Shown: positions 4,898 to 62,844, counted from the first letter of the stretch. The stretch is 64,000 nt of DNA from Candidatus Kerfeldbacteria bacterium (GCA_016182555.1 JACPGJ010000008.1:455411-519410), one strand, 5' to 3'. Notes: generated by a model from the sequence alone, not told the origin. Made by a program: numbers and translations.

Positions 4898-4948
4898 ACA
4901 AATAACTTTTTTTGTGCTACCCTACGTAAAACAGAACTTATCTAAAGT

Positions 4949-5010
4949 GTACCCCATTGTATTGAGAATTGGAACACCTTGATTCAAGATTTGAGGCATT
5001 GGTTTACTGT
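4949..5010. repeat. ~60-bp intergenic repeat, copy 1 of 3
   Basis: gtaccccattgtattgagaattggaacaccttgattcaagatttgaggcattggtttactgt; first 40 nt nearly identical to the copies at 6263 and 7344. Confidence 0.65.
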
Positions 5011-5038
5011 ATTGCAGCAAATGAATAAATAAACATAT

Positions 5039-6202
5039 TTATTGCGCAATTTGTTTCATATTTTTCCAACTTAACACGTGCCCTTGGCTACGTTGTTGAT
5101 TTTGCATACCGCCATAAATAACATATCCATGCTCTGCTGACATTCCAGCTAAATTCGTCCAGTACTGAATACCTTTAAAATAATCTGAAACAATTGTTTT
5201 ACCAGATTTAATTTCAATAGGAATTAATTGGTCACCTTGTTCAATAATACAATCAATTTCATGCCCTAAACGATCTCGCCAAAAATAACAATTGGGTTGT
5301 GCACCTTGATTAAAACGAAACTTCATCAATTCAGCAATAATAAAAGATTCAAATAAACCCCCATATAAATAATGCGTTTTTAATTGCGCAACATTCGTAA
5401 TATGCAATAAAGCACATGCTAAACCCGTATCATAAAAATAGAGTTTTGGCATTTTTATCAACCGTTTACTAAAATTTTTATGATGAGGCTGTAATAAAAA
5501 TACGATATAGCTAGACTCTAAAATACTCATCCACGCTTTTGCCGTATTATGCGTAATTCCACAATCATTGGCTAAAGAAGATAAATTCAGAATTTGTCCA
5601 ATTCTCCCAGCACATAATTTAATAAATTTTTGAAAGGCCTGTAGGTCAGAAATATTTTTAATCAAACGAACATCGCGCTCAACATACGTTTGAATATAAC
5701 TAGAATACCATTCAGAAGGATTCAGGTGTTGATCATAAATGCGTGGATAACATCCTGTAAACAAATAGCTCTCTATTGATTTTGTTTTGCTACTCGCTTG
5801 CTCTAATTCTTCTAAACTTAATGGTAATAACGTGAGCATTGCCACACGTCCGGCCAGAGTTTGCGAAACATGCTGTTGCAATAAATAGTTATGCGACCCT
5901 GTTAAGATAAATCGACCATTGACTGGCTGATTATCAATCATCGTTTGTAAATAGGATAGTAAATCTGGTACCCGTTGAATTTCATCAAAAATAGCCCCTT
6001 CTTGATATTGATCTAAAAATCTACGGGGGTCTGTTTGGGCAAATTCACGGGTATCTAAATCTTCGAGTGATACATACGGTTTATCACGAAACACCTTACG
6101 TACCAGAGTCGTTTTACCTGCTTGGCGTGGGCCAATGACTGCAATGGCTGGCATTTGTTGAGCCAATTGTTTTAACTTAACTTCTACATTACGCTTAATC
6201 AT
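5039..6202 (-). CDS. AAA+ ATPase of the DUF4143/COG1373 family
   Basis: 387-aa ORF; Walker A GPRQAGKTTL, Walker B-like IFDEIQRV, then TGSHNYLL; C-terminal region typical of DUF4143. Confidence 0.8.
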   Translation of the reverse strand: MIKRNVEVKLKQLAQQMPAIAVIGPRQAGKTTLVRKVFRDKPYVSLEDLDTREFAQTDPRRFLDQYQEGAIFDEIQRVPDLLSYLQTMIDNQPVNGRFILTGSHNYLLQQHVSQTLAGRVAMLTLLPLSLEELEQASSKTKSIESYLFTGCYPRIYDQHLNPSEWYSSYIQTYVERDVRLIKNISDLQAFQKFIKLCAGRIGQILNLSSLANDCGITHNTAKAWMSILESSYIVFLLQPHHKNFSKRLIKMPKLYFYDTGLACALLHITNVAQLKTHYLYGGLFESFIIAELMKFRFNQGAQPNCYFWRDRLGHEIDCIIEQGDQLIPIEIKSGKTIVSDYFKGIQYWTNLAGMSAEHGYVIYGGMQNQQRSQGHVLSWKNMKQIAQ

Positions 6203-6262
6203 AAAGCTATATTAGCATAGGTGTGACAAATTGTCAATTGAATTTACAATCTGTCCTATTTG

Positions 6263-6324
6263 GTACCCCATTGTATTGAGAATTGGAACACCTTGATTCA
6301 GGATTTGAAGCTGTGATTTACTGT
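6263..6324. repeat. ~60-bp intergenic repeat, copy 2 of 3
   Basis: gtaccccattgtattgagaattggaacaccttgattcaggatttgaagctgtgatttactgt between the ATPase and Fic genes. Confidence 0.65.
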
Positions 6325-6342
6325 CTTGCCTCAAATTGTAAA

Positions 6343-7311
6343 TTAACCATTTTGTAACAGTGCGTAAGACTCAAGCAATGCATCATAGATAAATGATTCC
6401 AAAAAAATGTATTTCTCTTCCAGTTGCGCTCGCTGTAAATAAGTATAATACGCTTGTTTCTTCTCTTGCTTAATTAACACTGGAGGTAATCCATATTGCA
6501 GAGCTTGTGCATGCATGAGTAATCTTCCAACACGTCCATTGCCATCAGAAAACGGATGAATTTGTTCAAACTGGGCATGAGTTTTTGCCATGTGCATGAC
6601 AATATCTTCTTCAGATGAGTGCTGGAGATCCTGGCCAAACGTATACATTCGATCATCAATCTTCAAATAATTCGTCGTAGGAACATGCGAACCAACGATG
6701 CGTACCCCATGACGGCGGTACATACCTGCGTCAGATCGAATACCATTCATCAAAATGGAATGAATTTTCTTTATCCAATCTTCTGTTATTTGTTTTGGCT
6801 TTTTATGTTGTGTTAACCACTGCATCAAATTTCCCAGTGCAGCTTGATGATTTTTTGCTTCTTGATGCTCAACGACTGTTTTATCAGGAATGGTCACATT
6901 ATCAAAAATAACCGCTCGCACTTCCGGTTCAGTGAATGTACTCCCTTCAATACTATTCGTATGATATGTCAGTTCAAGGACAAATGTTTCATACAGATCT
7001 TGCCGTTGTACTATATACTGTAACGGATGAGGAAATTGTTTTTTCAGTTCCGCCACCCGTTGCTTTTTTACCAAAAGCTCAGAGTCCGTCACTTCCTTAA
7101 CACCCGTATATTCTTGATACAATAGATCAATCTTCGCTTGTGCAATTTTACGTGGTAAACTCTTCCCATTCACCCAACTATTGAGTGTGACAAAACTGAC
7201 CTGCAGCATTTGAGCAAGCTCTGTTTGCGTTTTACCGCTTACTTTCAAAATTCGTTGAATTTTTTGCTGTACTGTCATAAGTACAGTATAACAAACTTTA
7301 TAAAGAATCAC
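6343..7311 (-). CDS. Fic-family AMPylator fused to an N-terminal XRE-type HTH
   Basis: 322-aa ORF; Fic motif HPFSDGNGRVGRLL; inhibitory-helix-like TNSIEG upstream of it; N-terminal HTH (KTQTELAQMLQVSFVTLNSWVNGKSLP). Confidence 0.8.
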   Translation of the reverse strand: MILYKVCYTVLMTVQQKIQRILKVSGKTQTELAQMLQVSFVTLNSWVNGKSLPRKIAQAKIDLLYQEYTGVKEVTDSELLVKKQRVAELKKQFPHPLQYIVQRQDLYETFVLELTYHTNSIEGSTFTEPEVRAVIFDNVTIPDKTVVEHQEAKNHQAALGNLMQWLTQHKKPKQITEDWIKKIHSILMNGIRSDAGMYRRHGVRIVGSHVPTTNYLKIDDRMYTFGQDLQHSSEEDIVMHMAKTHAQFEQIHPFSDGNGRVGRLLMHAQALQYGLPPVLIKQEKKQAYYTYLQRAQLEEKYIFLESFIYDALLESYALLQNG

Positions 7312-7343
7312 AAGTTTTATAAAGTTTCAATACTCAATGGTAT

Positions 7344-7403
7344 GTACTGCATTGTATTGAAAATTGGAACACCATAATTCAAAATTTACGCCATTGGTTT
7401 AAG
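7344..7403. repeat. ~60-bp intergenic repeat, copy 3 of 3
   Basis: gtactgcattgtattgaaaattggaacaccataattcaaaatttacgccattggtttaagga upstream of the Fic gene. Confidence 0.6.
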
Positions 7404-7419
7404 GAATTGAATGAAATTT

Positions 7420-7448
7420 TTGACACCTGTTTAAATGCTAATTAGAAT
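7420..7448 (+). promoter_or_regulatory. sigma-70-type promoter TTGACA-N17-TAGAAT
   Basis: TTGACAcctgtttaaatgctaatTAGAAT about 45 nt upstream of the 7491 ORF. Confidence 0.45.
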
Positions 7449-7490
7449 ATATATATAATTTAATAGTGTATTAAACAAAAAACTAGCTAT

Positions 7491-8129
7491 ATGGAAAGAT
7501 ATAATCCTGACACAAGACAAATGCATGGCCCATTTGAAAAATTTCAATTACGAGATATCCATTGGAAAGATACATTACCTTATACATTGCAAAAAAAAGC
7601 AGAAAGGCTAGACCCCTATTTTGATGAGCAAACTAATGATTATTCAAATCAATACTTCCATCAAAATTTTATAATCAACAATGATCAATTGGATTTTTTT
7701 GGATTAAGAAAAGTTTTTAAAAAAAAGGATCTTCAAATATTACTTAGAATCTGTAACAATGATTCGTTTATTCATCTTAAAATAGAACTTAATAAATATA
7801 CTGACAATTATTGTGTAATCACTGCTATAAAAAAAGAACGTGGATCAGCTACTTTACCTTCTAAATTGGGTATACAATTATATGAAAAATTGTTTGATTT
7901 CTTACAAGATTTAGCTGATACAACAGGTAAGCCGGTTACGCATATTGTAAGACGTGCTCCTGAAGAAATGAGCGATACACCTCTTACAATAGAACGTTGG
8001 AATCAAATATTTTTTCCTATTCTAAATAAAAATGGGAGAGTATACACCCTCGATCCAGAAACTGAACATACTTTTGAACATACTTTTCTACCTGAATCAA
8101 AAAAACCAAATACTCTGCAAGCTGCCTGA
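7491..8129 (+). CDS. hypothetical protein (AT-rich, probably foreign)
   Basis: 212-aa ORF, markedly lower GC than neighbours, no recognisable motif; abuts the tRNA-Glu 3' side. Confidence 0.5.
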   Translation: MERYNPDTRQMHGPFEKFQLRDIHWKDTLPYTLQKKAERLDPYFDEQTNDYSNQYFHQNFIINNDQLDFFGLRKVFKKKDLQILLRICNNDSFIHLKIELNKYTDNYCVITAIKKERGSATLPSKLGIQLYEKLFDFLQDLADTTGKPVTHIVRRAPEEMSDTPLTIERWNQIFFPILNKNGRVYTLDPETEHTFEHTFLPESKKPNTLQAA

Positions 8130-8214
8130 AAAAAACTGTTATCTTCTATACACGCAAGTGCGATAGATAAAAAATGTCTAAAACGCATCAAAAAATGGAA
8201 TTTTTTGTTGTCTG

Positions 8215-8286
8215 TACCCGCACGGGGAATCGAACCCCGATTATCGCGTTGAGAACGCGGCGTCCTAACCGTTAGACGATGCGGGC
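8215..8286 (-). tRNA. tRNA-Glu (anticodon CTC)
   Basis: Minus-strand sequence gcccgcatcgtctaacggttaggacgccgcgttCTCaacgcgataatcggggttcgattccccgtgcgggta folds as a cloverleaf: 7-bp acceptor, TTCGATT T-loop, anticodon loop ttCTCaa. Confidence 0.8.
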
Positions 8287-23812: not shown

Positions 23813-23885
23813 TGGGTCGTGCAGGAATCGAACCTGCGACCATCAGCTTAAAAGGCTGTTGCTCTACCGACTGAGCTAACGACCC
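23813..23885 (-). tRNA. tRNA-Lys (anticodon TTT)
   Basis: Minus strand gggtcgttagctcagtcggtagagcaacagccttTTTaagctgatggtcgcaggttcgattcctgcacgaccca; canonical D and T arms; anticodon loop cttTTTaa. Confidence 0.85.
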
Positions 23886-23979
23886 ATGCACTTGAAAAGC
23901 ATGCAGCAGTATACCAAAGATATTAATCAATGTGAAGCAGATCATACCATCATTGCAGAGTTAGGTCAAGCGGTTGAGC

Positions 23980-24008
23980 TTGACCAGCTTCTCCAGCATG
24001 CCTATAAT
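23980..24008 (+). promoter_or_regulatory. sigma-70 consensus promoter TTGACC-N17-TATAAT
   Basis: TTGACCagcttctccagcatgccTATAAT about 45 nt upstream of the 24054 ORF; the -35 overlaps the 3' arm of a perfect 8-bp hairpin (ggtcaagc/gcttgacc, 23964-23985). Confidence 0.5.
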
Positions 24009-24053
24009 TGATGGCTCGACAATGAATTTTATTAACATACTAGTCTATTTCTC

Positions 24054-26807
24054 ATGATATATTCTCCCTCTATTCGCATGCGTATCGCCGCCGCCTTAAC
24101 CTTGGCTTCTTTTTTTATCAGTGTTTTTCACATCGGTTCGGAAATACGTACAGCAAATGCACAAAAAACCAGGCAGAAAAAAAATACAATCAATGTGCCT
24201 CTCCATATTAAAAATTCGAATAGTGTACCGCGAAACAATGCCATAGTCAGCTCAGGTATTCCCCTACCCGAAGCCAACCATATCACACGAACAAAAAAAT
24301 TACGCATTGTTGATGACACTGGAAAAATCATTCCTGCTCAATTTCAAGTACTTTCTCGGTGGAACGGTGGACCGCAAAATAAGCATAATCCTATTCAGTG
24401 GGTCTTAGTCGATTTTCAAGTGAAGAGCCTGCCGGCAAATGGGGAAAAAATATTTCGTTTGCAAACTGCTCCAGGAAACCATGTACCTCATAACCAAATT
24501 CACATTCAAAAAACAGCAGATCACTTTACGATCAATACCGGTGTAGCGCAGTTTGTATTAAACCGAAAACAATTTACGCTCTTTCAACAAGTGAAGATAG
24601 ATAGCGATGATGATGGCACTCTCGATACAGAATTACTGAATCCAGACACGGGAGGAGCCATACTCACCATGAATGGAAAAACCTATACGACACGCAATGG
24701 TGATATGCAAACCATGAAATTTGAACACCGCGGCCCATTGCATAGCGTGCTGTTAGTCAAAGGTTGGCACGAAAATAGTGCAGGGGAAAAAGCGCTGGCA
24801 TACACTACTCGGTTCCATTTTTATGCGAATAGTCCAGCAGTGACTGTGCAATATGCAGCTTGGAATGATGGAAAAATAGTGAATGAAGGTGGACAACCCG
24901 ATATCAAAGAATTTGGCAGTCCAAATACAGCCATATTTAGCGGCATCACACTCAACACCCAACTACAAACACATAATTCACCATCCTACACCATCGGTGG
25001 TACAGCAGATGAGCGTTGGAATGGAACACTCTATAATGAAGCTGTATTATATCAAGATTCCAGTGGTGGTCCGAAATGGAGCCACACCCCAGATAATGTG
25101 AATAATACCTTTCGCGGATTTACCGCCACTGCAAATGACACGACGATGCATGACAGTTGCGCAAACGATGCAGATTCTGCGAATTGCCGCGCTGTTGGCT
25201 GGATTGATCTCTCTTCTTCCGCTGGTGGACTTGCCGTTGGTGTGCGTGACTTTTGGCAAAACTATCCGAAGGGATTGCGGGTGAATACAAATGGAACCGT
25301 ACAGGTGGAACTGTTTCCAGAAGAATACAACGCGAATTTTGAATTGCGTGTCGGAGAACAAAAAACCCATACTATTTCCTACTACTTTCATGCACCGGAT
25401 ATCAGCAGTGAACAGATACAGCAACAGATGATCGGTGCAAATTCACCTCTACAAGCCTGGGCGCCTGCCAATTGGTATCTCAACAAAGCAGCCGTTTTTC
25501 ACCATGCCGTCGCATACAACAAGAAAAAATTCTCAGCGTTTGAAGGCTATAACAATGCGGCTATCTCTTACAAAGATGCGAACTTGTTCTTACTCGAAGA
25601 TGGCATACCAAATACAGGCTGGACGTATGGTGACCGACCAGAATCATACGGTTGGCGAAATTATGGCGACCGCATTGCCGAAGATGAAACATCTGGTGAT
25701 GGCTACCCTGTATTCACGAACATGCAATACGACCATACCTGGTTCTATATTCTTCAAACAATTCGCACACTGGGCAGTGGAAACAGTCGGTCAGATGACT
25801 GGTGGAATTTAGCAGCACCAGCGGCATTGCTGCAAGGCGATATTAATATTATTCATTCACGCTGTACCGGAAAAACGGCAACAGCCATGGGATCGTGCAT
25901 GGATTCAAGTACACCAATACCAATCGGTTGGGCAATGGGCGGCCGGCTGACTAACCAGTGGCATTCCTGGTCATCGGAACATATTCATCGCCACGCCTTA
26001 ATTGATTCTTGGGCCGGAGGATTGCATGGCCAGCTTTATTATTACTACCTTACCGGCGACGGTTTTGTGAAAGACGCTTGGAAAGAATATGCACGTAATA
26101 GTGCCTGGCGGATGGAGAATACGCCATGCAACCAAGACATAACAACAGATTGCGACCCAGGGTATGCATCAATGAATCCTCATGCGGCTCAAGATAACGA
26201 ATGGGGTCGAGGCGGAGCCTATATGTTGGAAATTCTTACTGACGCATGGAACGCCACGGGCAAGCAACGTTACTTGGATTCCGCACAAGCTGTCGTTGCA
26301 GCACTCAACCCAGATGGCACGTGGTTTACAGCACCAGATTTCACTTTAAATAGTAACGCAGAAGGAACTGGCCGTACGGTTTCACCTTGGGCAGTGGCGA
26401 TGGTCACCAAATCGTTAGGATATTATCTCGATAGCTACAAAGACCATTTTGGCACCATAGATACCAATGCTCAACATGATTTAATCGAATACGCCCACGT
26501 ACTGAGCAACTTTTGGCAACTAGGTGAGGACCAACCTACGCAATACCGCATTTATGAAAATGGAGCGTATACACCCGTAGAAAGTGACCCCCTGGATGTA
26601 GCTATGGCCGATGGATTGATTTGGGCGCTCGATTATGATGATGGCACACTAGACCGTGTTCGTATTGCAAAGGTGGCAGAAGCGGCTTTCAACGCCGGCA
26701 GCCATCCGTGGGGTTCATACGCCGAAAATACCTATATGACCACCAAAACCCACGTGATGATGGGAATCAATGGTTGGCGCTACATGAAATACGCACTCAA
26801 CAAATAA
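24054..26807 (+). CDS. large secreted hypothetical protein (917 aa)
   Basis: Signal peptide (MRIAAALTLASFFISVFHIGSEIRTANA); Trp/Tyr/Asn/Gly-rich extracellular protein; no catalytic motif recognised. Confidence 0.7.
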   Translation: MIYSPSIRMRIAAALTLASFFISVFHIGSEIRTANAQKTRQKKNTINVPLHIKNSNSVPRNNAIVSSGIPLPEANHITRTKKLRIVDDTGKIIPAQFQVLSRWNGGPQNKHNPIQWVLVDFQVKSLPANGEKIFRLQTAPGNHVPHNQIHIQKTADHFTINTGVAQFVLNRKQFTLFQQVKIDSDDDGTLDTELLNPDTGGAILTMNGKTYTTRNGDMQTMKFEHRGPLHSVLLVKGWHENSAGEKALAYTTRFHFYANSPAVTVQYAAWNDGKIVNEGGQPDIKEFGSPNTAIFSGITLNTQLQTHNSPSYTIGGTADERWNGTLYNEAVLYQDSSGGPKWSHTPDNVNNTFRGFTATANDTTMHDSCANDADSANCRAVGWIDLSSSAGGLAVGVRDFWQNYPKGLRVNTNGTVQVELFPEEYNANFELRVGEQKTHTISYYFHAPDISSEQIQQQMIGANSPLQAWAPANWYLNKAAVFHHAVAYNKKKFSAFEGYNNAAISYKDANLFLLEDGIPNTGWTYGDRPESYGWRNYGDRIAEDETSGDGYPVFTNMQYDHTWFYILQTIRTLGSGNSRSDDWWNLAAPAALLQGDINIIHSRCTGKTATAMGSCMDSSTPIPIGWAMGGRLTNQWHSWSSEHIHRHALIDSWAGGLHGQLYYYYLTGDGFVKDAWKEYARNSAWRMENTPCNQDITTDCDPGYASMNPHAAQDNEWGRGGAYMLEILTDAWNATGKQRYLDSAQAVVAALNPDGTWFTAPDFTLNSNAEGTGRTVSPWAVAMVTKSLGYYLDSYKDHFGTIDTNAQHDLIEYAHVLSNFWQLGEDQPTQYRIYENGAYTPVESDPLDVAMADGLIWALDYDDGTLDRVRIAKVAEAAFNAGSHPWGSYAENTYMTTKTHVMMGINGWRYMKYALNK

Positions 26808-26824
26808 ACTGTGTGTACAACACG

Positions 26825-26845
26825 GGGAAAGAATGTGTCTTTCCC
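26825..26845 (+). terminator. hairpin downstream of the 917-aa gene (no T-run)
   Basis: gggaaaga-atgtg-tctttccc: perfect 8-bp stem 18 nt after the stop codon. Confidence 0.3.
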
Positions 26846-26890
26846 TGCGTTGGCATTGGCAGAAATTTACGATAAGATACGGAGACACCT

Positions 26891-28282
26891 ATGGCAGAAA
26901 CATCTCTCATCCCTCAACCCGCTCTCGGCTTTGTGCCGCCAAATAACACCGAAGCTGAACAGGCGGTCCTCGGCGCGTTGCTGATTGACCAAAACGCCAT
27001 TATTCGGGTTGCCGATATTGTCGATTCTGATGATTTTTACGCCGAAAAGCACCGGTTGATTTATGAATCGATGATTGAGATTTACAGCAAACGTGAACCG
27101 ATTGACCTGGTGAGTTTGACCAACCGTTTGAACGAAAAAAATGTGCTGGAAAATATTGGCGGCCGTGCCTTTCTTGCGGGACTGACCAATAGCGTCCCAA
27201 CAGCCAGCAATGTCGAATTCTACGCCAAAATTGTTCACCAAAAAGCGACGCTACGTCGTTTAATCAAAACCGGTTACGACATTATCAAATTTGGACAAGA
27301 AGAAACCAATGATATTGAACATGTGTTGGACAAAGCTGAACAGGCACTCTTCACGGTATCGCAACAATCCCTGCGCCAAAACTTTGTCGCCATTCATTCT
27401 ATTTTGACGGATGCCTTTGACCGGTTGGACGAAATTCATCGTAATGAAGGAAAGTTGCGTGGCGTTTCAACCGGCTACAAAGCCTTAGATAATATGCTCG
27501 GTGGATTGCAGAAATCAGATCTCATCATTTTAGCAGCTCGACCATCGATGGGAAAAACCGGTTTGGCGTTGGATATTGCGCGGCATGTGTCGGTGCGAGA
27601 AAAAATTCCCACCGCGATTGTGTCACTGGAAATGAGTAAAGACCAATTAGGCGACCGCATGTTGTGTGCCGAAGCCAGCGTCGATTTATGGAAAATGCGC
27701 ACTGGCAAACTGCAAAACGATTCCGACTTTGCCAATATCGGCCGTGCGATGGGAGCACTCGCTGAAGCTCCCCTCTTCATCGACGACTCTGCGTCTGCCA
27801 ATATTATGGAAATTCGCACCAAGGCCCGCCGTTTGCAAATGGAACACGGTATCGGATTATTGATTATCGATTATTTACAATTAATGGAAGGGCGCAATAC
27901 CAATTCCGATAACCGCGTGCAAGAAATTGCCGAGATCTCTCGTGGGTTAAAATCGATTGCGCGTGAATTGAATGTACCGGTGCTCGCGTTGTCGCAGTTG
28001 TCTCGCGCCGTGGAACAACAAAATCCACCGATTCCAAAGCTCTCTCATTTACGTGAAAGTGGTAGCATTGAACAAGATGCCGATGTCGTCATGTTTATTT
28101 ACCGTGAAGAATATTATAAAAGAGATAGCGACCGAAAAAACATTGCGGACGTGATTATCGCTAAACACCGTAACGGTCCCGTAGGCCAAATTGAACTGTT
28201 CTTCGATATTGAAAAAGCATCGTTCAAAAACCTAGAAAAACGGTTTAATGATGTTGGCCCTCCCCCACCCGAAGCGTTCTAA
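26891..28282 (+). CDS. dnaB: replicative DNA helicase DnaB
   Basis: 463-aa ORF; N-terminal EAEQAVLGALLID; Walker A RPSMGKTGLALDIA; RecA-like C-terminal domain. Confidence 0.9.
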   Translation: MAETSLIPQPALGFVPPNNTEAEQAVLGALLIDQNAIIRVADIVDSDDFYAEKHRLIYESMIEIYSKREPIDLVSLTNRLNEKNVLENIGGRAFLAGLTNSVPTASNVEFYAKIVHQKATLRRLIKTGYDIIKFGQEETNDIEHVLDKAEQALFTVSQQSLRQNFVAIHSILTDAFDRLDEIHRNEGKLRGVSTGYKALDNMLGGLQKSDLIILAARPSMGKTGLALDIARHVSVREKIPTAIVSLEMSKDQLGDRMLCAEASVDLWKMRTGKLQNDSDFANIGRAMGALAEAPLFIDDSASANIMEIRTKARRLQMEHGIGLLIIDYLQLMEGRNTNSDNRVQEIAEISRGLKSIARELNVPVLALSQLSRAVEQQNPPIPKLSHLRESGSIEQDADVVMFIYREEYYKRDSDRKNIADVIIAKHRNGPVGQIELFFDIEKASFKNLEKRFNDVGPPPPEAF

Positions 28283-28363
28283 ATAGTAGGGCAGCTAACC
28301 CGGCTTGCGAGAGTAGCTCCGCTTCGATACAATACAAACACTTAACTGATTGATAACAAGTAT

Positions 28364-28669
28364 ATGTTTCAAAAACTGAAGCAGTATAAAGACCTGCGTG
28401 GTCAAGCAAAAAAAGCGCAATCTATCCTGGAATCCGTGACGGTTCATGCCGATGCGGCTGGCGGAAAAATTGCAATTGTGATGGATGGCAACCAAAAAAT
28501 TATGAATCTGGATATTGACGTTTCACTTTTTGCGCCAGAACACAAAAAGAAAGTGGAAGATGGGGTGAAAGAAGCCATTGAAAATGCAACGAAAAAATTG
28601 CAACGCGTGATGTTACAAAAAATTAAAGCGGGCGAATTGGAAATGCCAGATATGTCGAAACTGGCGTAA
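28364..28669 (+). CDS. ybaB: nucleoid-associated protein YbaB/EbfC
   Basis: 101-aa ORF; MFQKLKQYKDLRGQAKKAQSILESVTV...GGKIAIVMDGNQKIMNLDID; precedes recR as is usual. Confidence 0.85.
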   Translation: MFQKLKQYKDLRGQAKKAQSILESVTVHADAAGGKIAIVMDGNQKIMNLDIDVSLFAPEHKKKVEDGVKEAIENATKKLQRVMLQKIKAGELEMPDMSKLA

Positions 28670-28701
28670 AACGCGCCTGACCAGTTAGCTATACCGCGAA
28701 C

Positions 28702-29304
28702 ATGAAAATTGTTCCTCCATCCATTCAACGACTCATTCGTGAATTCAACAAATTTCCGGGCATTGGTTCAAAAACGAGCGAACGCTTTGTTTTTCATTTA
28801 CTGAAACAACCGCGCACGGAAATTGAACAGCTGGCGCAAACGCTGCAAGATGTAAAAGTGAAAGTGCACTTCTGTAAAGAATGTTATACGTATACCGAAC
28901 AAGAGGTGTGCGAAATTTGCCGCAACCCGGAGCGGAACCGGGCATTTTTGTGCGTCGTCGCGGAGCCAAAAGATGTGTTGTCTATTGAACAAACCGGGCA
29001 GTTTGATGGCCGCTATCATGTGTTAGGTGGCGTGATCAACCACGCTGATGGCATTGGGCCAGAGCAGTTGCGCATGAATGAATTACTGGAGCGCGTGGAA
29101 CGTGAACATGTGCAAGAAGTGGTGATTGCGACCAATCCAGATATGGAAGGTGAAACCACGGCGGTCTATATTGCAAAACGTTTGGAAGGAAAACCGGTGA
29201 CGGTCACTCGTATTGCGCGTGGGCTACCAGTTGGTGCGGATATTGAATTTGCCGATGAAGTCACTTTAGGTAGTGCCATGAAAGCTCGCCAAAAAATTCT
29301 GTGA
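28702..29304 (+). CDS. recR: recombination protein RecR
   Basis: 200-aa ORF; C4 zinc finger CKECYTYTEQEVCEIC; Toprim domain. Confidence 0.9.
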   Translation: MKIVPPSIQRLIREFNKFPGIGSKTSERFVFHLLKQPRTEIEQLAQTLQDVKVKVHFCKECYTYTEQEVCEICRNPERNRAFLCVVAEPKDVLSIEQTGQFDGRYHVLGGVINHADGIGPEQLRMNELLERVEREHVQEVVIATNPDMEGETTAVYIAKRLEGKPVTVTRIARGLPVGADIEFADEVTLGSAMKARQKIL

Positions 29305-29356
29305 TATGAGAATCTAAAAAACTCCGGTGATGACCGGAATTTTTTGTATCTCGCTA

Positions 29357-29674
29357 TTATGCAGAAATTTTAGTAATTTGGAGTTCAGTATATGGTTGAC
29401 GGTGGCCGTAGGTACGAGCGTAGCGAACTTTCGCTTTGAATTTCTTCACCATCACTTTGCGTGCTCTCCCCTGCTTGATAATTTTTGCCGTCACGGTTGC
29501 GCCATCCACCAGCGGACTGCCAATTTTGGCACTGCTGCCATCTTCTGCGCCAGTCATGAGGACTTCTTCAAAATTGATTGTCTCTTGTTCTTTGGCGTCC
29601 AATTTTTCTACCTGTAAAACATCTCCTTCTTTAACGAGATATTGTTTTCCGCCAGTCTTGATTACTGCCATCAT
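29357..29674 (-). CDS. rplU: 50S ribosomal protein L21
   Basis: ORF trimmed to MMAVIKTGGKQYLVKEGD; L21 signature. Confidence 0.85.
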   Translation of the reverse strand: MMAVIKTGGKQYLVKEGDVLQVEKLDAKEQETINFEEVLMTGAEDGSSAKIGSPLVDGATVTAKIIKQGRARKVMVKKFKAKVRYARTYGHRQPYTELQITKISA

Positions 29675-29865
29675 ATCGTTTTCCCTTGAAACTATTAATA
29701 AATGAATCGAATAATAGTGTACCAACTCTTGGGCAATGAGTCAAGCGCTGGTGGTTGCCATTTGACCAGGTAGTGACTGTGGATAACTATCTTGACCAAA
29801 TAGCCGAGTTTCAGTATAGTTTCGCAACTCTTGGGTTCAAATTCCTGTTTTTTTACTGTTTCCGA

Positions 29866-29896
29866 ACCCAAAAAACCGCGGCACCACTTCGGTGCC
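29866..29896 (-). terminator. rho-independent terminator, minus-strand orientation
   Basis: Minus strand reads ggcacc-gaagt-ggtgcc followed by gcggTTTTTTggg; lies upstream of rplU and on the far side of the GC-rich insert from the DUF192 gene. Confidence 0.5.
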
Positions 29897-29917
29897 AATG
29901 TGCTTGTGGAGGTTGTG

Positions 29918-30364
29918 ATGTCTCGCCATCTGTCCCGTGTTCGTTTTTCTACTCAGATGATTCTGGCTGGCATGATGCTGATTGCGGTACTCGCCGTGAC
30001 CTGTTTCCTCGTTCCGAATGCCCGAGCGGCCGGCTCGAGCTTCGTGATCGAAACCGCATTCGCCAGCCAGGTGCTTCCGGAAACCCTGCGCACTAACGTG
30101 ACGATTCCGGAAGGGTATCAATGCCAGGCAGGCACATTCGCGAACTACCTCGACGAGCAATCCGGTGAGACCTTCAACACCGCGCGCGTCGGTGGCTCGT
30201 TCGCATTCCTGCTCTCGACGCCCACCCCGGGGATGGTATACATCTGCGAATCCTTCCCCGACGGTTGGTACTACGGCGAGGACGGCTGGGAGTACTACGA
30301 CGATCCGGTGTTCTGCTATGGGCGGACATCGGGTCGTTCGTTGAGAACCCTCATCGGCGAATGA
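29918..30364 (+). CDS. small secreted protein, Trp/Tyr/Gly/Asp-rich, in a GC-rich insert
   Basis: GGAGG 6 nt upstream of ATG; MSRHLSRVRFSTQMILAGMMLIAVLAVTCFLVPNARAAG signal peptide; about 60% GC versus about 45% in flanks; the plus-strand track ORF 29831..30364 is trimmed to this start. Confidence 0.6.
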   Translation: MSRHLSRVRFSTQMILAGMMLIAVLAVTCFLVPNARAAGSSFVIETAFASQVLPETLRTNVTIPEGYQCQAGTFANYLDEQSGETFNTARVGGSFAFLLSTPTPGMVYICESFPDGWYYGEDGWEYYDDPVFCYGRTSGRSLRTLIGE

Positions 30365-30605
30365 TCGCAGACCCACCGCGCTGGAACCAGGTTCCGGCGC
30401 CGTTATCTCCTGCCCAGAAAAGGCGACCACACTATGCGCGTCAAAGGTCGCCACGTGCTCCTGCTCCATGCCCTTCTTCATTCCTCCTCGTACGACGTAC
30501 CTGTAATGGGCAACGTCAAACGAGCGTTCGATCAGTCGTTCCAACGGCAGACGAACAAAATGAAGCGGGGCTCTTTTTTTTACTTACCATTCAACATAAC
30601 AAACA

Positions 30606-31091
30606 CTACTCCGCATTCCCTATTTCCACACTATCGCCAACCTGTATATGATATCTATTCACATCTCCAGCATAAATTTCAATGACGCGGTTCACCGGCA
30701 TATTTGGATAATACACATGTAAATTCGCATCCGCCACACCAGGTTCGGACTGCACATTCGCAGTGATATCCACAATACGGTTTCCATCAATCCACAAAAA
30801 ATCTAACGGTATGAACGTATTCTTCATCCAAAAACCGGTGGTCTGTTTTCGTGGAAATTCAAACAACATGCCGTGGTGTAGCGGCAATGTGGTTCGGTTC
30901 TGCAACCCTTGTTCTCGCTCGGCATCTGAATCTGCAACTTCTAACATAAAATCCGCGTCTCCTAAACGCGCTTGTACAACCGTTTTTTCTTCCAACGCTT
31001 GTTGTGTGCGTTGTGTATGCAAATAGTACCGCACGCCGAGCACCGTTCCTGCGACCGCGGCCAACAAAAAAATGACCATTATTTTTCTCAT
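30606..31091 (-). CDS. DUF192-family protein (secreted or membrane-anchored)
   Basis: 161-aa ORF; N-terminal TM; HHGMLFEFPRKQTTGFWMKNTFIPLDFLWIDGNRIVDI matches the DUF192/COG1430 pattern. Confidence 0.7.
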   Translation of the reverse strand: MRKIMVIFLLAAVAGTVLGVRYYLHTQRTQQALEEKTVVQARLGDADFMLEVADSDAEREQGLQNRTTLPLHHGMLFEFPRKQTTGFWMKNTFIPLDFLWIDGNRIVDITANVQSEPGVADANLHVYYPNMPVNRVIEIYAGDVNRYHIQVGDSVEIGNAE

Positions 31092-32167
31092 ATACTTTTT
31101 CGGCGATAGGCACGTACCACAATAGCAGCGACAACAACCATGACGAAAACCAACACACCCATCGCGACAATTTTTTGTTTTGATTCCAAAAATAACGATA
31201 TGGTTCCAAACACCGCTGTTAATGTATATAACACTAATACTGCTTGCCGTTGCGACAAACCAATGTCCACCAAACGAAAATGCAAATGTTTTCGATCAGC
31301 AGCAAACGGTGAACGTTTTTCAAAAAACAACCGGCGCACAATAATCCACGCAACATCTAAAATCGGGATGCCCATAATCAACAACGCAGTCGCGATTTTT
31401 CCGCCAGAAATAATGGAAAGCACGCCTAACATAAAACCAGGATACAACGAACCGGCTTCACCCAAAAATATTTTTGCTGGGTGAAAATTCAATACCAAAA
31501 ATCCAGCAAAGGCGCAGCCAACAATAAACGCAATACCCGCGGTTTCCGGTTGATACACTTCCTGCGACAAGCTCAACCAAAACAAAATGAACATGCCGAT
31601 CACCGTAATCCCTGAAACCAACCCATCTAATCCATCTAAAAATTTGGTGGTATACATCATGCCCAATAACCACACAACGGTAAACACATCACTGAATACA
31701 GTGATCGAATACGGCAATCCGTTGATACGGAACAGGGTAATATCTACCACATCCAATCGCCAAATGCCGCCCAACGGGTTGGTAACATAATCAATTCCTA
31801 CTCCAGAAGCCACGATCACGACCACTGCAAGAACGGGCGCAATCACTTGATAGCGCGGCGGTAAATTATACCGATCATCCAGCCCTCCACCAATGCCAAT
31901 AATCAAACCGCCTAACAACACGCCGGCCAGATGTTTCCACAATAAATACCCGTGCACTAGCCAGGGCGATGCCACCAGCAACCCAATACTACAAGCGACA
32001 ATCACCGCCATGCCGCCAAGTAATGGTGTCGAGCGCGCATGCTGCTTTCGTTCATGCGTTGGTTCATCAATAATATGTTTCGCTAACGCAAAACGCCGTA
32101 CGAGTATAGTGAATACAACCGAAAGAAAAAATGTGCTGATTCCAATAATGAGTATATCTGTACTCAA
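31088..32167 (-). CDS. polyprenyl-phosphate N-acetylhexosamine-1-phosphate transferase (GT4, MraY/WecA family)
   Basis: 359-aa polytopic ORF; GGLIIGIGGGLDD and FLDGLDGLVSG motifs. Confidence 0.75.
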   Translation of the reverse strand: MSTDILIIGISTFFLSVVFTILVRRFALAKHIIDEPTHERKQHARSTPLLGGMAVIVACSIGLLVASPWLVHGYLLWKHLAGVLLGGLIIGIGGGLDDRYNLPPRYQVIAPVLAVVVIVASGVGIDYVTNPLGGIWRLDVVDITLFRINGLPYSITVFSDVFTVVWLLGMMYTTKFLDGLDGLVSGITVIGMFILFWLSLSQEVYQPETAGIAFIVGCAFAGFLVLNFHPAKIFLGEAGSLYPGFMLGVLSIISGGKIATALLIMGIPILDVAWIIVRRLFFEKRSPFAADRKHLHFRLVDIGLSQRQAVLVLYTLTAVFGTISLFLESKQKIVAMGVLVFVMVVVAAIVVRAYRRKSI

Positions 32168-32178
32168 GGTCGCAAAAA

Positions 32179-32577
32179 TTAATGACTCGAATGTTCATCC
32201 AAAAAATTCTGCAACATAATCTGTGCGGCAACGGCATCGCGGTCTTCATTTTTCACGCCTTGCAATAATTTCTTTGCCATCTCCGTGGTTAAACGTTCAT
32301 CAATCGTTTGTACGGGCACCGATACATGATTGCGTAATTTTTCAATAAACCGATTCACATGCTCGGTCATTTCCGTTGGTTCACCGCTCATATTTATTGG
32401 CAATCCCACAACCACTGATTCGACCTGATCTTCTTCAATGATCTGTTTAATACGGTCAATCACCTCTGGTTGGCTCGACAATGAAATACTTCCTTTCAAT
32501 ACGGCAAGACGACCTTCTGGATCAGAAATGGCAAGACCAGTGCGTTTTGAACCGTAATCAATTCCTAAGTATCGCAT
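32179..32577 (-). CDS. ruvX: Holliday-junction resolvase-like RuvX/YqgF
   Basis: 132-aa ORF; MRYLGIDYGSKRTGLAISD. Confidence 0.85.
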   Translation of the reverse strand: MRYLGIDYGSKRTGLAISDPEGRLAVLKGSISLSSQPEVIDRIKQIIEEDQVESVVVGLPINMSGEPTEMTEHVNRFIEKLRNHVSVPVQTIDERLTTEMAKKLLQGVKNEDRDAVAAQIMLQNFLDEHSSH

Positions 32578-32580
32578 ACA

Positions 32581-33327
32581 TTATTGTTGAGTCAGTATTT
32601 CTGGACCGCGTTCTGTAATCACGATCGTATCTTCAAAATGTGCGGATAGTGTACCATCGAAGGTGCGAACCGTCCACCCATCATCTTCAAAAACAACACG
32701 AGCGCTGCCAATATTCACCATAGGCTCAATAGCCAATACCATCCCCGCTGCTAACCGAGGACCCGTATGTGGTTGCCCATAATTTGGTACCTGCGGTTCT
32801 TCGTGCACATCTTCGCCAACGCCGTGCCCCACCAATACACGCACCACACTAAAATTCTCCGCTTCCACATAAGTTTGAATTGCTGCACCAATATCACCAA
32901 TAGTATTGTCTGGTACTAATTCTTGCACACCTAAACGTAGAGATTCCTCCGTAATGCGAATCAATTTTTGAGCCTCCGCAGTAATAATGCCCACCGGAAT
33001 TGTACGCGCCATATCGGTACAAAAACCCTTGAAACGAACGCCGCAGTCTAAACTCAATATATCTCCTTCTGCAATTACCCGCTTCCCCGGAATGGCATGC
33101 ACCACTTCATCATTGATCGACGTGCAGATGGATTTTGGATATCCACGATAACCTAAAAAAGAAGATTCTGCACCGTGTTGTTGAATCGTTTTAACAAATA
33201 GTGCATCCAAATCATTCGTGGTCATCCCAGGACGAACAGCATCAATCAACACCGCCATGGCGTTAGCTAAAATTTTTCCACCTTCGCGCAATGCTTGAAT
33301 TTGTTTGGGTGTTTTAATCAAAGCCAT
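32581..33327 (-). CDS. map: type I methionine aminopeptidase
   Basis: Trimmed to MALIKTPKQIQALREGGKIL; metal ligands in HGVGEDVHE...; follows adk. Confidence 0.85.
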   Translation of the reverse strand: MALIKTPKQIQALREGGKILANAMAVLIDAVRPGMTTNDLDALFVKTIQQHGAESSFLGYRGYPKSICTSINDEVVHAIPGKRVIAEGDILSLDCGVRFKGFCTDMARTIPVGIITAEAQKLIRITEESLRLGVQELVPDNTIGDIGAAIQTYVEAENFSVVRVLVGHGVGEDVHEEPQVPNYGQPHTGPRLAAGMVLAIEPMVNIGSARVVFEDDGWTVRTFDGTLSAHFEDTIVITERGPEILTQQ

Positions 33328-55998: not shown

Positions 55999-56346
55999 TT
56001 GAGAAAATGTATGAAAAATAAAAAATGGTTTAAGGTTCTTGTTGTATTTGTAATCATTATTGTTATTATAGCGATTATTATTTTTTTAGGATTTCAAAAA
56101 CATACGCTGAACACTACAGTGCTCTCTTGCACTGAAAAAAATCTCGTAACAACAACAGGAAAATATCGCTTTCCACCGCAGTGGGGATTAGAAGGATACA
56201 AAATTCTTGTTCATCCTCAACCAGGAGGAATGTTTGATGCGATTTATCCAAATCAAATATGTAATAGTGAATCAAATTTCGTTCATGAAATCATCGCTAT
56301 AGAATACACGGGGTTGGGTTATATTACAGCGATTTACGTTCGTTAA
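55999..56346 (+). CDS. small membrane-anchored hypothetical protein
   Basis: 115 aa; N-terminal TM (VLVVFVIIIVIIAIIIFLGF). Confidence 0.45.
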   Translation: MRKCMKNKKWFKVLVVFVIIIVIIAIIIFLGFQKHTLNTTVLSCTEKNLVTTTGKYRFPPQWGLEGYKILVHPQPGGMFDAIYPNQICNSESNFVHEIIAIEYTGLGYITAIYVR

Positions 56347-56368
56347 TTTTTATGGGGTATTTGAATTT

Positions 56369-56827
56369 ATGAAAATGAAAATTGTATCCACGATAGGTTC
56401 GATATTTATCATCATCGCTCTACTACTCTCTTACTATTTATATACTGGCAGAAGCTGCGGTGTATCTTCAAAAATATGTATAGAATCACGAAAAATAAGT
56501 GTGGGTACGAGTGTGGAAAGAATTGGAAAAAATGGAAAAGTGATCTTTAATATCGGCTTAATAGATAATACCCGCACATATGACATTGACATGCAACTAC
56601 GTGATGAATGGAATTTTGGTGATGAGAATTCTACAACGCAATTAAGCGAGGAAGTACATACCGGTAGAATGATGCCAGATTATTTAATTGCCAGCTATAC
56701 AAAAGAATATACCTACACCAAGCCAGGAACATATACCGTTTTATTGAAAATCATTGATGCTACACACCACACAACATACACAGCAGAACCACTGAGCGTT
56801 ACGATTCCCGAATCTGCATTCAAGTAA
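56369..56827 (+). CDS. PKD-like domain protein, paralog of the N-terminus of 54393..55982
   Basis: 152 aa; aligns to the first ~150 aa of the upstream gene (LLSxYYLYTxxxCGVSSKICIESxxIS...WNFGDE...YTKPGTYTV...TIPES). Confidence 0.65.
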   Translation: MKMKIVSTIGSIFIIIALLLSYYLYTGRSCGVSSKICIESRKISVGTSVERIGKNGKVIFNIGLIDNTRTYDIDMQLRDEWNFGDENSTTQLSEEVHTGRMMPDYLIASYTKEYTYTKPGTYTVLLKIIDATHHTTYTAEPLSVTIPESAFK

Positions 56828-58052: not shown

Positions 58053-58227
58053 ATCGTATTTTGGCTAATCATTAATCTCTCCTTCCCAGTATAGCAACGG
58101 CTTCAAAAAAGTCGAGCTGATCACTTGCAAACTAATCATGAGACCCCCTTGCATTGCAACACTATTCAGCCTATAATAAATTAAGACGTCCCCACCCTTT
58201 GTGGGTTTTATTATTTTCTTTTTTGCT

Positions 58228-58638
58228 ATGGATGAGGACGTTAAATGGTTACTACAAAAATTGGTTACCTGGACAAAACTCAAGCTGAAAATACATATTT
58301 TACAAGATACTCATCTTGTTTACTTTCACGAAAGAGAAATCTGGTGGTGTTCCCTAGGCATAAATATAGGATATGAACAAAACGGAAAAAATCAGTATTT
58401 TGAACGACCAGTGTTAGTGGTAAAAAAATTCAACAGATATTTACTATGGGCAGTTCCCTTAACCAGTAAACAAAAATCGGGAAAATTTTATTATGAAACA
58501 TGGTATGAAGGAAAAAAATACTCTATCATTTTGTCTCAAATGAGAGCAATCAGTAGCAAACGACTGTTGAGAAAAATACGCACTGTACCGCAGTCAGAAT
58601 TTACTGAGGTAAAAAAACAGATAAAACTCTTTTTATAA
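58228..58638 (+). CDS. MazF/PemK-fold endoribonuclease toxin homolog (solitary)
   Basis: Track ORF 58201 starts at a GTG inside a hairpin and is trimmed to the ATG at 58228; EREIWWCSLGINIGYEQNGK...ERPVLVVKKFN...LWAVPLTSK...SQMRAISSKRLLRKIRTV matches the MazF/PemK pattern. Confidence 0.6.
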   Translation: MDEDVKWLLQKLVTWTKLKLKIHILQDTHLVYFHEREIWWCSLGINIGYEQNGKNQYFERPVLVVKKFNRYLLWAVPLTSKQKSGKFYYETWYEGKKYSIILSQMRAISSKRLLRKIRTVPQSEFTEVKKQIKLFL

Positions 58639-61461: not shown

Positions 61462-62589
61462 TCAGTAGCTGGCGATGTCGTCGGGATTATTATTCTCCAC
61501 GACGCAGTCCGTCATTGAGGGCTCGGCATTGCGAAGATACATTCCTCCACCACTTTCGCCCGCCGAATTTTCTGTCACTTCAACCCGAGTGAGCGTCGGG
61601 TTTGCGTGATCAATGTAGACCCCACCACCCCACAAATCAGCCTCGTTGCTGTGAATGGTGAGGTCTGTAAGTTCAACTCCCGCATCCTGTCCCACGTAGA
61701 TTCCTCCACCTCCGGCCACAGCGTAATTGTCCATGAAGGAAGAATTCGTCACCACGCCGGATGAATAGCGACCGAAAGACACCCCCATGCCATAGTAGCC
61801 GACGTTGGAGTTGAAAGAACATTCAGTCACCTCAACATCAGCATCCTGATTGACATGAATACCCGCGCCGTTATAGGTCACGAAGTTCTCGGCAAAAAAT
61901 GACTCTGTGACCGTCAGTTCAGCGTGTTCACCAGCATAGATACCACCTCCGTCGCCGTTGGCTACACACCAAGTGAATATGCTGTGCTGAAACGCAGCCC
62001 GCGTGAACTCGGTGTAGACACAACCTCCGTCGCCACCAGTGGTTGTAGTGGAGTTAGTGAAGGTGACGTTCCTAAAAGTTGGATCGGCATATTCCCCGAT
62101 CCAGACTAACCCGCCATTTCCGCTCTCTCCATTAGTCAGGGTAAACCCATCCACAACTCCATCTTCCGTATACGCTGTGAATGACATTACTCGTCCCAAG
62201 AACTGAGCGTCGATCGTCGTCACCTCGGCGCCTTTGCTGGAGAGCAGCGTGAGTGCCTTTCCTCCGAAATGCAGGTCGTGTTCGAGATACGTCCCTGGGC
62301 CCACTGAAACAGTGTCCCCATCGTTAGCCGCGTCGATCGCGGACTGGATAGTGACGTAGCAGTTTTCCTGCACAGCCACAGTTCCCGTGTCGCTCACGCC
62401 GTCACAGTTCTGGTCTACGCCATCGCATTCCTCTGCCGCACCGGGATGAATTTCCGGATTCGTGTCGTCGCAGTCGCCATCGTCCACGGTCCAGCCGTCC
62501 CCATCGATATCGGGATCGTCACAAGACGAAATCCCGCTCAACAGCGTGCAAACGCTCGAAAAAACAACGGTGAAAAACAGGTGCCTCAT
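61462..62589 (-). CDS. parallel beta-helix lipoprotein with N-terminal Cys/Asp-rich MopE-like motif, in a GC-rich insert
   Basis: 375 aa; signal plus lipobox LLSGISSC; DGDGWTVDDGDCDDTNPEIHPGAAEECDGVDQNCDG; repeated GGGIY/NxxxG beta-helix rungs; about 60% GC; GGAGG ribosome-binding site. Confidence 0.7.
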   Translation of the reverse strand: MRHLFFTVVFSSVCTLLSGISSCDDPDIDGDGWTVDDGDCDDTNPEIHPGAAEECDGVDQNCDGVSDTGTVAVQENCYVTIQSAIDAANDGDTVSVGPGTYLEHDLHFGGKALTLLSSKGAEVTTIDAQFLGRVMSFTAYTEDGVVDGFTLTNGESGNGGLVWIGEYADPTFRNVTFTNSTTTTGGDGGCVYTEFTRAAFQHSIFTWCVANGDGGGIYAGEHAELTVTESFFAENFVTYNGAGIHVNQDADVEVTECSFNSNVGYYGMGVSFGRYSSGVVTNSSFMDNYAVAGGGGIYVGQDAGVELTDLTIHSNEADLWGGGVYIDHANPTLTRVEVTENSAGESGGGMYLRNAEPSMTDCVVENNNPDDIASY

Positions 62590-62773: not shown

Positions 62774-62844
62774 AGCGGGATACCAGAATCGAACTGGCGC
62801 CTCAACCTTGGGAAGGTCGCATACTACCACTATACTAATCCCGC
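62774..62844 (-). tRNA. tRNA-Gly (anticodon CCC)
   Basis: Minus strand gcgggattagtatagtggtagtatgcgaccttCCCaaggttgaggcgccagttcgattctggtatcccgct; cloverleaf with anticodon loop ttCCCaa. Confidence 0.8.

Follow-up and report, generated by a model that had tools for sequence, protein, structure and literature searches.

The stretch analyzed here is a 64-kb window from Candidatus Kerfeldbacteria, a lineage of the candidate phyla radiation (CPR), and all coordinates are positions in that window. Between the minus-strand genes for a DUF192 protein and ribosomal protein L21 (rplU) lies a short islet rich in guanine plus cytosine (GC) that carries a single plus-strand gene, here called orf148. The islet is a real, recent, horizontally acquired single-gene case of a known kind of event; from its features we infer both the direction and the recency of transfer. 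A fragment of about 0.68-0.73 kb was probably taken from a donor with about 58-60% GC and integrated recently into a variable slot between DUF192 and rplU in the genome of this ultra-small bacterium, presumably an inhabitant of groundwater, where it has not yet ameliorated.

The composition of the islet is the first line of evidence. A preliminary description of this DNA had pointed to GC-rich DNA in a lower-GC genome, and the contrast is confirmed: positions 29897-30580 have 57.7% GC vs. the window mean of 43.5% and represent the top stretch of this length. Among segments of 684 base pairs (bp), with a standard deviation of 4.4 percentage points, the maximum over the whole window is 58.6%, in the segment starting at 29871. 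A two-state likelihood fit places a GC-rich block from 29876 to 30553 or 30573, with 59% vs. 42.5% GC and a log-likelihood gain of 24; within 2 log units, its left edge lies in 29855-29993 and its right edge in 30461-30578. The open reading frame (ORF) of orf148 has 58.8% GC, and its GC content at third codon positions (GC3) is 0.72, vs. 0.40 ± 0.077 and a maximum of 0.60 in the 72 non-overlapping ORFs of the window. Scored against the synonymous codon usage of the host, orf148 yields -0.09 and the host genes 0.118 ± 0.064, a deviation of about three standard deviations, and in tetranucleotide distance the islet ranks 21st of 1267 segments. The product contains nine arginines and no lysine among its 148 residues, vs. 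5.3% lysine in host proteins (P about 3e-4). In GC, GC3, codon usage, and oligonucleotides, the islet thus has the composition of a horizontally acquired genomic islet.

The gene itself is well formed. The ORF list, translation, and codon-position GC define orf148 at 29918-30364 on the plus strand, with 148 codons for a small putative exported protein that is lysine-free and rich in aromatic and acidic residues. Its ATG occupies 29918-29920, a correction of the start at 29920 given earlier, and its TGA stop 30362-30364. A Shine-Dalgarno GGAGG read from the sequence at 29908-29912 (plus strand) precedes the ATG by 5 nucleotides (nt). GC by codon position is 0.55/0.50/0.72, as is typical of a true gene derived from a GC-rich genome. 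The earlier claim of one convincing plus-strand gene with a GGAGG ribosome-binding site is thus upheld by both the site and the in-frame GC periodicity. Gene calling on the Logan assembly gave the identical product of 148 amino acids (aa), and the NCBI annotation (HYV32_06225 / MBI2411458.1, on a contig of 598,550 bp) has a 177-aa product starting from TTG at 29831. A candidate sigma-70-like promoter, TTGACC-17-TATAGT (29792-29820, plus strand), matches the consensus at 10 of 12 positions, by consensus only, and lies in DNA of host composition 98 nt upstream of orf148. Recoding of UGA was considered and rejected, as TGA terminates 9 of the 72 host ORFs, RecR and GT4 among them.

The opposite strand contains a 235-aa ORF at 29837-30544, which is not a gene. 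Its codon-position GC of 0.68/0.47/0.58 mirrors that of orf148, and it has no homolog or family match, so it is a shadow ORF driven by GC content, as had been proposed. Among 5.8 billion clusters, no homolog was found for it at an expectation value (E) of 1 or less, itself included, and it has therefore been recorded by no gene caller. Pfam, NCBIfam, and PHROG gave no match for orf148 at E<=1, and none for the shadow ORF or for the read-through frame beyond the orf148 stop.

Both junctions of the islet are present in a second assembly. The Logan contig SRR12113422_279462 is 100% identical to the window over 8,841 nt (23849-32689), with flanks of 6 and 2 kb around the islet. The check for chimeric junctions suggested in the preliminary description is thereby largely answered, as the contig of a second assembler is identical through both junctions. 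The metagenome-assembled genome presumably comes from a groundwater study of Northern California in which MEGAHIT assembly and IDBA-UD scaffolding were used (PMC7906910), and its software presumably differs from that behind the Logan assembly, neither point being confirmed.

The second line of evidence is provided by the same locus in related genomes. A scan of species-representative genomes revealed only one related locus with the order RuvX-GT4-DUF192-...-rplU. There, RuvX, GT4, and L21 have 64-67% identity to their counterparts, and the slot is occupied by an unrelated 410-aa gene, no traces of which were found in the window; for the closest relative available, amino-acid identity is about 62-67%. 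With a GT4 profile, 80 related loci were retrieved from JGI metagenomes. Related loci widely preserve the order RuvX-GT4-DUF192-rplU, with RecR and YbaB next in convergent orientation. Between DUF192 and rplU, 19 loci have a gap of 53-214 nt and 12 have one of 0.85-2.8 kb. The cargo of the long gaps is unrelated to orf148 and includes argininosuccinate synthase, a class-II glutamine amidotransferase, and coiled-coil proteins. No homolog of orf148 was found in 160 related loci, even at E<=1, which largely settles whether relatives carry a native ortholog at this position. The syntenic position is thus either empty or filled with other cargo, as expected for an acquired islet. Because the gap is short or filled with unrelated cargo and never with an orf148 homolog, insertions have recurred in the DUF192-rplU slot of this lineage, making it a hotspot with many alternative occupants, of which orf148 is one.

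Some of these occupants recur. An opposite-strand protein of 394-403 aa without a Pfam match is found in three long gaps (L093, 6891-8102; L090, 2993-4177; L107, 3425-4612); it adjoins an ArgG-like gene in L093 and L090 and a 200-aa membrane protein in L107. Homologous membrane proteins of 200-210 aa, also without a Pfam match, occupy the same slot in L085 (3371-4003) and L107 (4756-5358). These membrane proteins are GC3-rich for their loci, with 0.69 in a locus of 40% GC and 0.58 in a locus of 37% GC.

Residues 1-37 of the orf148 translation (29918-30028, plus strand) are predicted to form a Sec signal peptide or an N-terminal anchor. By eye, the N-terminus consists of a basic n-region, a 19-residue hydrophobic core, and then PNARA/AG. 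Cleavage after Ala37 (ARA/A) would leave 111 aa rather than the 118-aa mature protein proposed earlier; with a hydrophobic region of 19 residues, a membrane anchor is also possible. A single-sequence AlphaFold model contains a helix at residues 5-31 and has low confidence, with a predicted local distance difference test score (pLDDT) of 46. The aromatic and acidic patch noted before, YICESFPDGWYYGEDGWEYYDD, is indeed present in the product.

A single relative of this protein was found in the collections covered, about 15 billion proteins in all. A word-indexed protein search returned the protein itself alone, and a HMMER search against 1.84 billion representatives gave one credible relative, P0005 (E=1.4e-4). 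P0005 is an unnamed protein of 150 aa with an N-terminal signal sequence, encoded on a 969-nt Logan contig, SRR31564088_1821993. In the BLASTP alignment of the two proteins, 18 of 34 residues are identical and both cysteines are aligned. The sole conserved part is the segment from Cys110 to Cys133, CESFPDGWYYGEDGWEYYDDPVFC (30245-30316, plus strand), and the common cysteine-bracketed motif can be written C-E-x-x-P-x-G-W-Y-Y-G-E-[DN]-G-W-E-Y...C. P0005 thus resembles the orf148 product in its signal peptide, similar length, CExxPxGWYYGE(D/N)GWEY motif, and aligned cysteines. In contrast, no similarity extends beyond the 34-residue motif, which is found at residues 56-89 in P0005 and 105-138 in the orf148 product; P0005 is lysine-rich, and its gene context is unrelated to that of orf148. 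When other frames are aligned, the similarity extends a few residues past the stop and is carried by the motif. The P0005 gene has 54.5% GC and a GC3 of 0.61, the upstream 445 nt have 37-40% GC, and the step in GC coincides with the gene start. Like orf148, it is thus GC-richer than an adjoining AT-richer flank, which, with two cases, is a lead only. Searches with a profile of the shared motif brought up no candidates from the protein collection, none that were confirmed from the JGI metagenomes, and none from viral contigs.

Three further HMMER matches, all to giant repeat proteins, were discounted, as their scores sum many weak repeats that are individually non-significant. In P0003, each of the identical repeats aligns to the orf148 product at E=0.11 alone, and the HMMER value of 6e-6 sums 14 repeats. 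Two of the three giant proteins are mucin-binding surface proteins by Pfam. The P0003 repeat looks like an SdrD-B/Cna-B-type unit of surface adhesins, a name that Pfam did not give. The weak likeness to these beta-sandwich repeats consists of a local G-x-Y-x-V/C-x-E-x-x-P-D-G-W pattern after a beta-rich stretch; the difference is that the orf148 product has no Pfam match at E<=1. By this analogy, the P0003 repeat weakly hints at a beta-sandwich for the orf148 product, for which profiles give no support. A sequence search of the PDB gave chance-level matches alone (E>=0.3).

Downstream of the stop, the DNA is strongly structured. The last 210-230 nt or so of the islet, past the end of orf148, fold with a z-score of -3.6 relative to shuffles. 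At a distance of 10 nt from the stop, an inverted repeat at 30375-30403 (plus strand) forms a predicted GC-rich stem-loop of 10-12 bp (-17.9 kcal/mol, z -2.6) with no good U-tract, which may be a donor-type terminator of orf148. It contains the 13-nt palindrome ggaaccaggttcc, which is exact and lies at 30383-30395, as described before. Farther downstream, at 30470-30581 (plus strand), a 102-nt Y-shaped stem (30470-30571), also with an inverted repeat, is followed by UC and U8. The stem has a predicted energy of -41.3 kcal/mol and a z-score of -4.6, with 0 of 200 shuffles as stable, and UCUUUUUUUU stands directly 3' of it. The Y-shaped stem with U8 is a terminator-like element that would provide an end for plus-strand transcripts just ahead of the convergent DUF192 stop. 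The T8 run had been noticed earlier and is present, at 30574-30581 rather than 30572-30581. In the islet, Rfam gave no family match at the gathering score, the best being mir-1183 (E=1.3); in the whole window it recognized three transfer RNAs (tRNAs).

Several observations weigh against a recent acquisition of a complete foreign gene. The dinucleotide signature of the islet is only mildly atypical (rank 123 of 1267 segments). One remote relative, P0005, is all that was found for orf148, and the searches of plasmids, phages, viral contigs, JGI metagenomes, and protein collections revealed no donor. The two assemblies are probably based on the same reads and would then be independent in software, not in data. 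Finally, GC periodicity in the frame of orf148 persists for about 200 nt beyond the TGA (0.62/0.44/0.70).

As for the donor, the 741-nt region gave no match against plasmids and phages, and two short motifs taken from it had no exact occurrence in viral contigs; homologs amount to the protein itself and the single motif-level relative. Patescibacteria are known to acquire genes horizontally, mostly from other members of their own group (Gios et al., 2025; PMC12455944), and the likely source study (unconfirmed) lists Kerfeldbacteria bins of about 43% GC and of 54-59% GC, some of them with about 58-59% (PMC7906910 supplements). Similar to acquired genes and islets of Patescibacteria/CPR (PMC12455944), the islet is an atypical segment in a streamlined genome, with a single non-core gene in a variable slot. 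It differs from them in its size of about 0.7 kb, in having no mobility gene, donor, or close homolog, and in its position antisense between two housekeeping genes.

Among other explanations, the islet could be foreign and dead: orf148 would then be a non-functional, decaying piece of what was a longer gene in the donor, truncated by the islet boundary, by a nonsense mutation, or by both. The frame of orf148 is open from 29831 to 30685 (855 nt) except for the single TGA at 30362. Because the periodicity and the open frame run past this TGA, a truncated remnant of a longer gene is possible, and the lack of close homologs and the low pLDDT of the structure model are in line with it. However, the start context is intact, with GGAGG, a 5-nt spacer, and ATG, and nothing is missing from the signal-peptide-like N-terminus. 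P0005, which likewise has about 150 aa, conserves the motif and both cysteines, and the stable stem-loop 10 nt past the stop is situated as at a true gene end. The peptide encoded downstream of the TGA is arginine-rich and matches no family. On balance, we consider this decay scenario unlikely.

The second alternative concerns the mode of integration. A 10-nt direct repeat, TTTTTTTACT, flanks the islet at 29848-29857 (left copy) and 30575-30584 (right copy, overlapping the T8 run). This 10-mer occurs three times on the plus strand of the window, and two of these occurrences are the ones flanking the islet. By chance, the edges would share a word of 10 nt or more with a probability of about 0.5-2%, for compared zones that were picked after the fact.

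Near the left edge, a minus-strand intrinsic terminator is predicted at 29870-29897. It has a GGCACC/GGUGCC stem of 7-8 bp with five G-C pairs, a GAAGU loop, and then CGGUUUUUU (-11.9 kcal/mol), that is, a hairpin with a U-tract, as expected for this class. It is the best-scoring terminator-like site in the 18 kb between 22000 and 40000 and, as predicted from its sequence, would halt read-through from RuvX-GT4-DUF192 ahead of the rplU promoters. Three boundary models remain. In model A, that of the preliminary description, the insert is 29898-30573. Its removal puts A8 against the hairpin and U-tract, which yields a canonical terminator for the DUF192 operon; a host role for the hairpin fits, because it works in the minus orientation only. 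In model B, the insert is 29858-30584, flanked by TTTTTTTACT, and the hairpin came with it. In model C, T8 comes from the own terminator of the cassette, and TTTTTTTACT is microhomology used at integration. Composition defines the boundaries to about 40 nt at best and, by the ranges of the two-state fit, does not choose between these models. Thus, the proposal that the insert separates DUF192 from its terminator is correct as regards the presence of a minus-strand terminator at 29897-29870; ownership of this terminator by DUF192 is unproven, because the left boundary by composition may fall either within the hairpin or beyond it, because relatives whose slot is empty lack a terminator at this site, and because edges at TTTTTTTACT would place the hairpin inside the insert. 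In the intergenic sequences of 14 short-gap relatives, an rplU promoter, CTTGACT-N17-TATAAT, directly follows the DUF192 stop, with no terminator.

The direct repeat, which flanks a unit of 727 bp, opens the possibility that the islet was mobilized in trans or as a cassette, similar to miniature inverted-repeat transposable elements (MITEs) or integron cassettes, and not by random illegitimate recombination. The unit consists of a single ORF with a structured 3' element, the slot is hit repeatedly in relatives, and the gene of P0005 is likewise GC-richer (54.5%) beside a flank of 37-40% GC. However, no terminal inverted repeats pair the ends of the islet, and the plasmid, phage, and viral collections contain no match. 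By Pfam, there is no transposase or integrase domain in either ORF or next to the islet, and the immediate neighbors, rplU, RecR, DUF192, and GT4, are housekeeping genes. No second copy exists within the 64-kb window, and the likeness to P0005 is confined to the protein motif. Mobilization of this kind is, in our estimation, quite unlikely.

Two specific mobile elements were considered and rejected. An integron gene cassette resembles the islet in size (about 0.7 kb) and in having one ORF followed by a structured, imperfectly palindromic element; in contrast, the islet has neither R''/R' core sites nor an adjacent integrase, and its ORF has its own Shine-Dalgarno sequence. A regular-expression scan of 29840-30620 found no GTTRRRY and one RYYYAAC only, in the host flank, so that the core pair is absent. 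A MITE or another non-autonomous insertion sequence (IS) would also be shorter than 1 kb, and TTTTTTTACT could be a 10-bp target duplication; the islet differs in carrying a cargo ORF and in lacking terminal inverted repeats, a transposase, and a further copy in the window.

A more far-reaching scenario is that orf148 and P0005 represent a hitherto unrecognized and extremely rare family of exported mini-proteins, characterized by a disulfide-bracketed GWYYGE(D/N)GWEY loop and distributed as a self-contained single-gene cassette into AT-richer genomes. The Kerfeldbacteria copy could have been captured from the host, or else from a sister CPR lineage of high GC, and could be used at the symbiont-host interface. 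Kerfeldbacteria are reported to be strongly host-attached (He et al., 2021; PMC7906910). We regard this scenario as a long shot. If it is true that the cassette came from the host or a sister CPR, its composition would point to the identity of the partner.

An assembly chimera, in which a piece from a GC-rich organism was misjoined into the Kerfeldbacteria contig, would account for the abrupt jump in composition and for the homopolymer or T-rich sequence at both edges. The same organism is found in a second run as a 1.4-kb contig of low coverage (SRR12113419), equivalent to window positions 30589-31976, which breaks off 8 nt from the A8/T8 run bordering the islet. This end is probably due to low coverage, and less probably to an insertion polymorphism, even though a contig terminating at 30589, so close to the A8 run, is what a chimera might produce; it falls short on both sides and terminates 15 nt before the expected end at a branch of the junction. 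Moreover, two assemblers gave identical sequence through both junctions, an internal insert of 0.7 kb demands two false joins, and the edges share 10 nt alone, which is far under assembly k-mer sizes. A chimera is therefore very improbable. Exact-protein look-ups for an insert-free population variant returned only the same Logan contig and the SRR12113419 contig, which is uninformative in this respect. Still less credible is a native gene or RNA whose high GC reflects structural or functional constraint: structured RNAs do stand out as GC-rich islands where the genome is AT-richer, and the folding of the 3' 230 nt is significantly more stable than that of shuffles, but there is no Rfam family match even at E<=5, the excess of GC falls mainly on the third codon positions of an open frame, and no relative carries the block.

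For the favored explanation, the recent integration of a foreign fragment, the following course of events can be proposed. The simplest route would be uptake of foreign DNA and its illegitimate integration at a permissive intergenic site. The fragment would be a complete single-gene unit, with a Shine-Dalgarno sequence, the 148-codon ORF, the GC-rich stem-loop, and the 102-nt Y-shaped stem ending in a U-run. The gene is antisense to both neighbors and is probably transcribed from the promoter of host composition about 100 nt upstream, and its plus-strand transcription probably ends at the Y-shaped stem with U8. Read-through from DUF192 on the minus strand would cross the islet antisense and halt at the hairpin 29897-29870. 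The product would be exported via Sec, with a cleaved signal peptide or with an N-terminal anchor, and would display outside the cell a small, probably disulfide-bracketed, aromatic and acidic loop, CExxPxGWYYGE(D/N)GWEY...C. Expression, export, the disulfide, and any cell-surface role of the product are all inferred from these features.

In terms of general understanding, the islet is one more example of horizontal transfer and leaves current views unchanged. CPR bacteria have tiny genomes and depend on mostly unidentified hosts; a fresh, unameliorated foreign gene indicates that they still take up and keep DNA. The DUF192-rplU slot is marked as a specific hotspot of cargo turnover across the lineage, and orf148 and P0005 make up an orphan family of two, in which an aromatic motif is sharply conserved. 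If a donor were found in the same aquifer metagenome, the composition of the islet might hint at the partner of the organism.

The neighbors of the islet are conventional. On the right, the DUF192 gene (30606-31091, minus strand; Pfam PF02643, E=4e-27) is the last of the RuvX-GT4-DUF192 run, and its stop is at 30606 as reported earlier (TAG, 30606-30608). On the left, rplU is found at 29357-29674 on the minus strand (Pfam PF00829, E=2e-36). A promoter scan assigned to rplU a TG-extended candidate promoter, TTGACT-17-TACACT (29716-29744, minus strand), in an arrangement kept in related loci, and revealed a second promoter-like copy, TTGAAC-16-TATACT (29813-29840, minus strand), in a 20-nt repeat shared with the rplU promoter region. 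The two copies of this direct repeat, 29714-29733 and 29816-29835, are 85% identical; through them, the spacer and -10 region of the rplU promoter are present twice. Of the resulting tandem minus-strand promoter-like sites, the upstream one overlaps the plus-strand promoter-like site that faces orf148.

Elsewhere, the composition of the window is patchy in both directions, GC-rich and GC-poor. A second GC-rich outlier is a 375-aa gene at 61462-62589 (minus strand), adjoining a tRNA gene at 62774-62844; its GC is 0.54, and its GC3 of 0.60 is the top value among host ORFs. The product combines a right-handed beta-helix with MopE-like metal-binding motifs (Pfam PF13229, PF11617), and may be another acquired secreted protein. 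At the other extreme, the stretch 4900-8130, with 28-35% GC and a tRNA gene nearby at 8215-8286, looks like an AT-rich acquired islet. It contains a DUF4143/AAA_14 ATPase gene (5039-6202) and, beside the tRNA gene, a 212-aa ORF with a GC3 of 0.17 and no Pfam match (7491-8129). Further ORFs of low GC (32-37%) are found in 55999-56827 and 58201-58638, the latter encoding a MazF/PemK-type toxin. Upstream of DnaB, a gene at 24054-26807 (plus strand) encodes a 917-aa protein with a PcRGLX_2nd (rhamnogalacturonan-lyase-like) domain.

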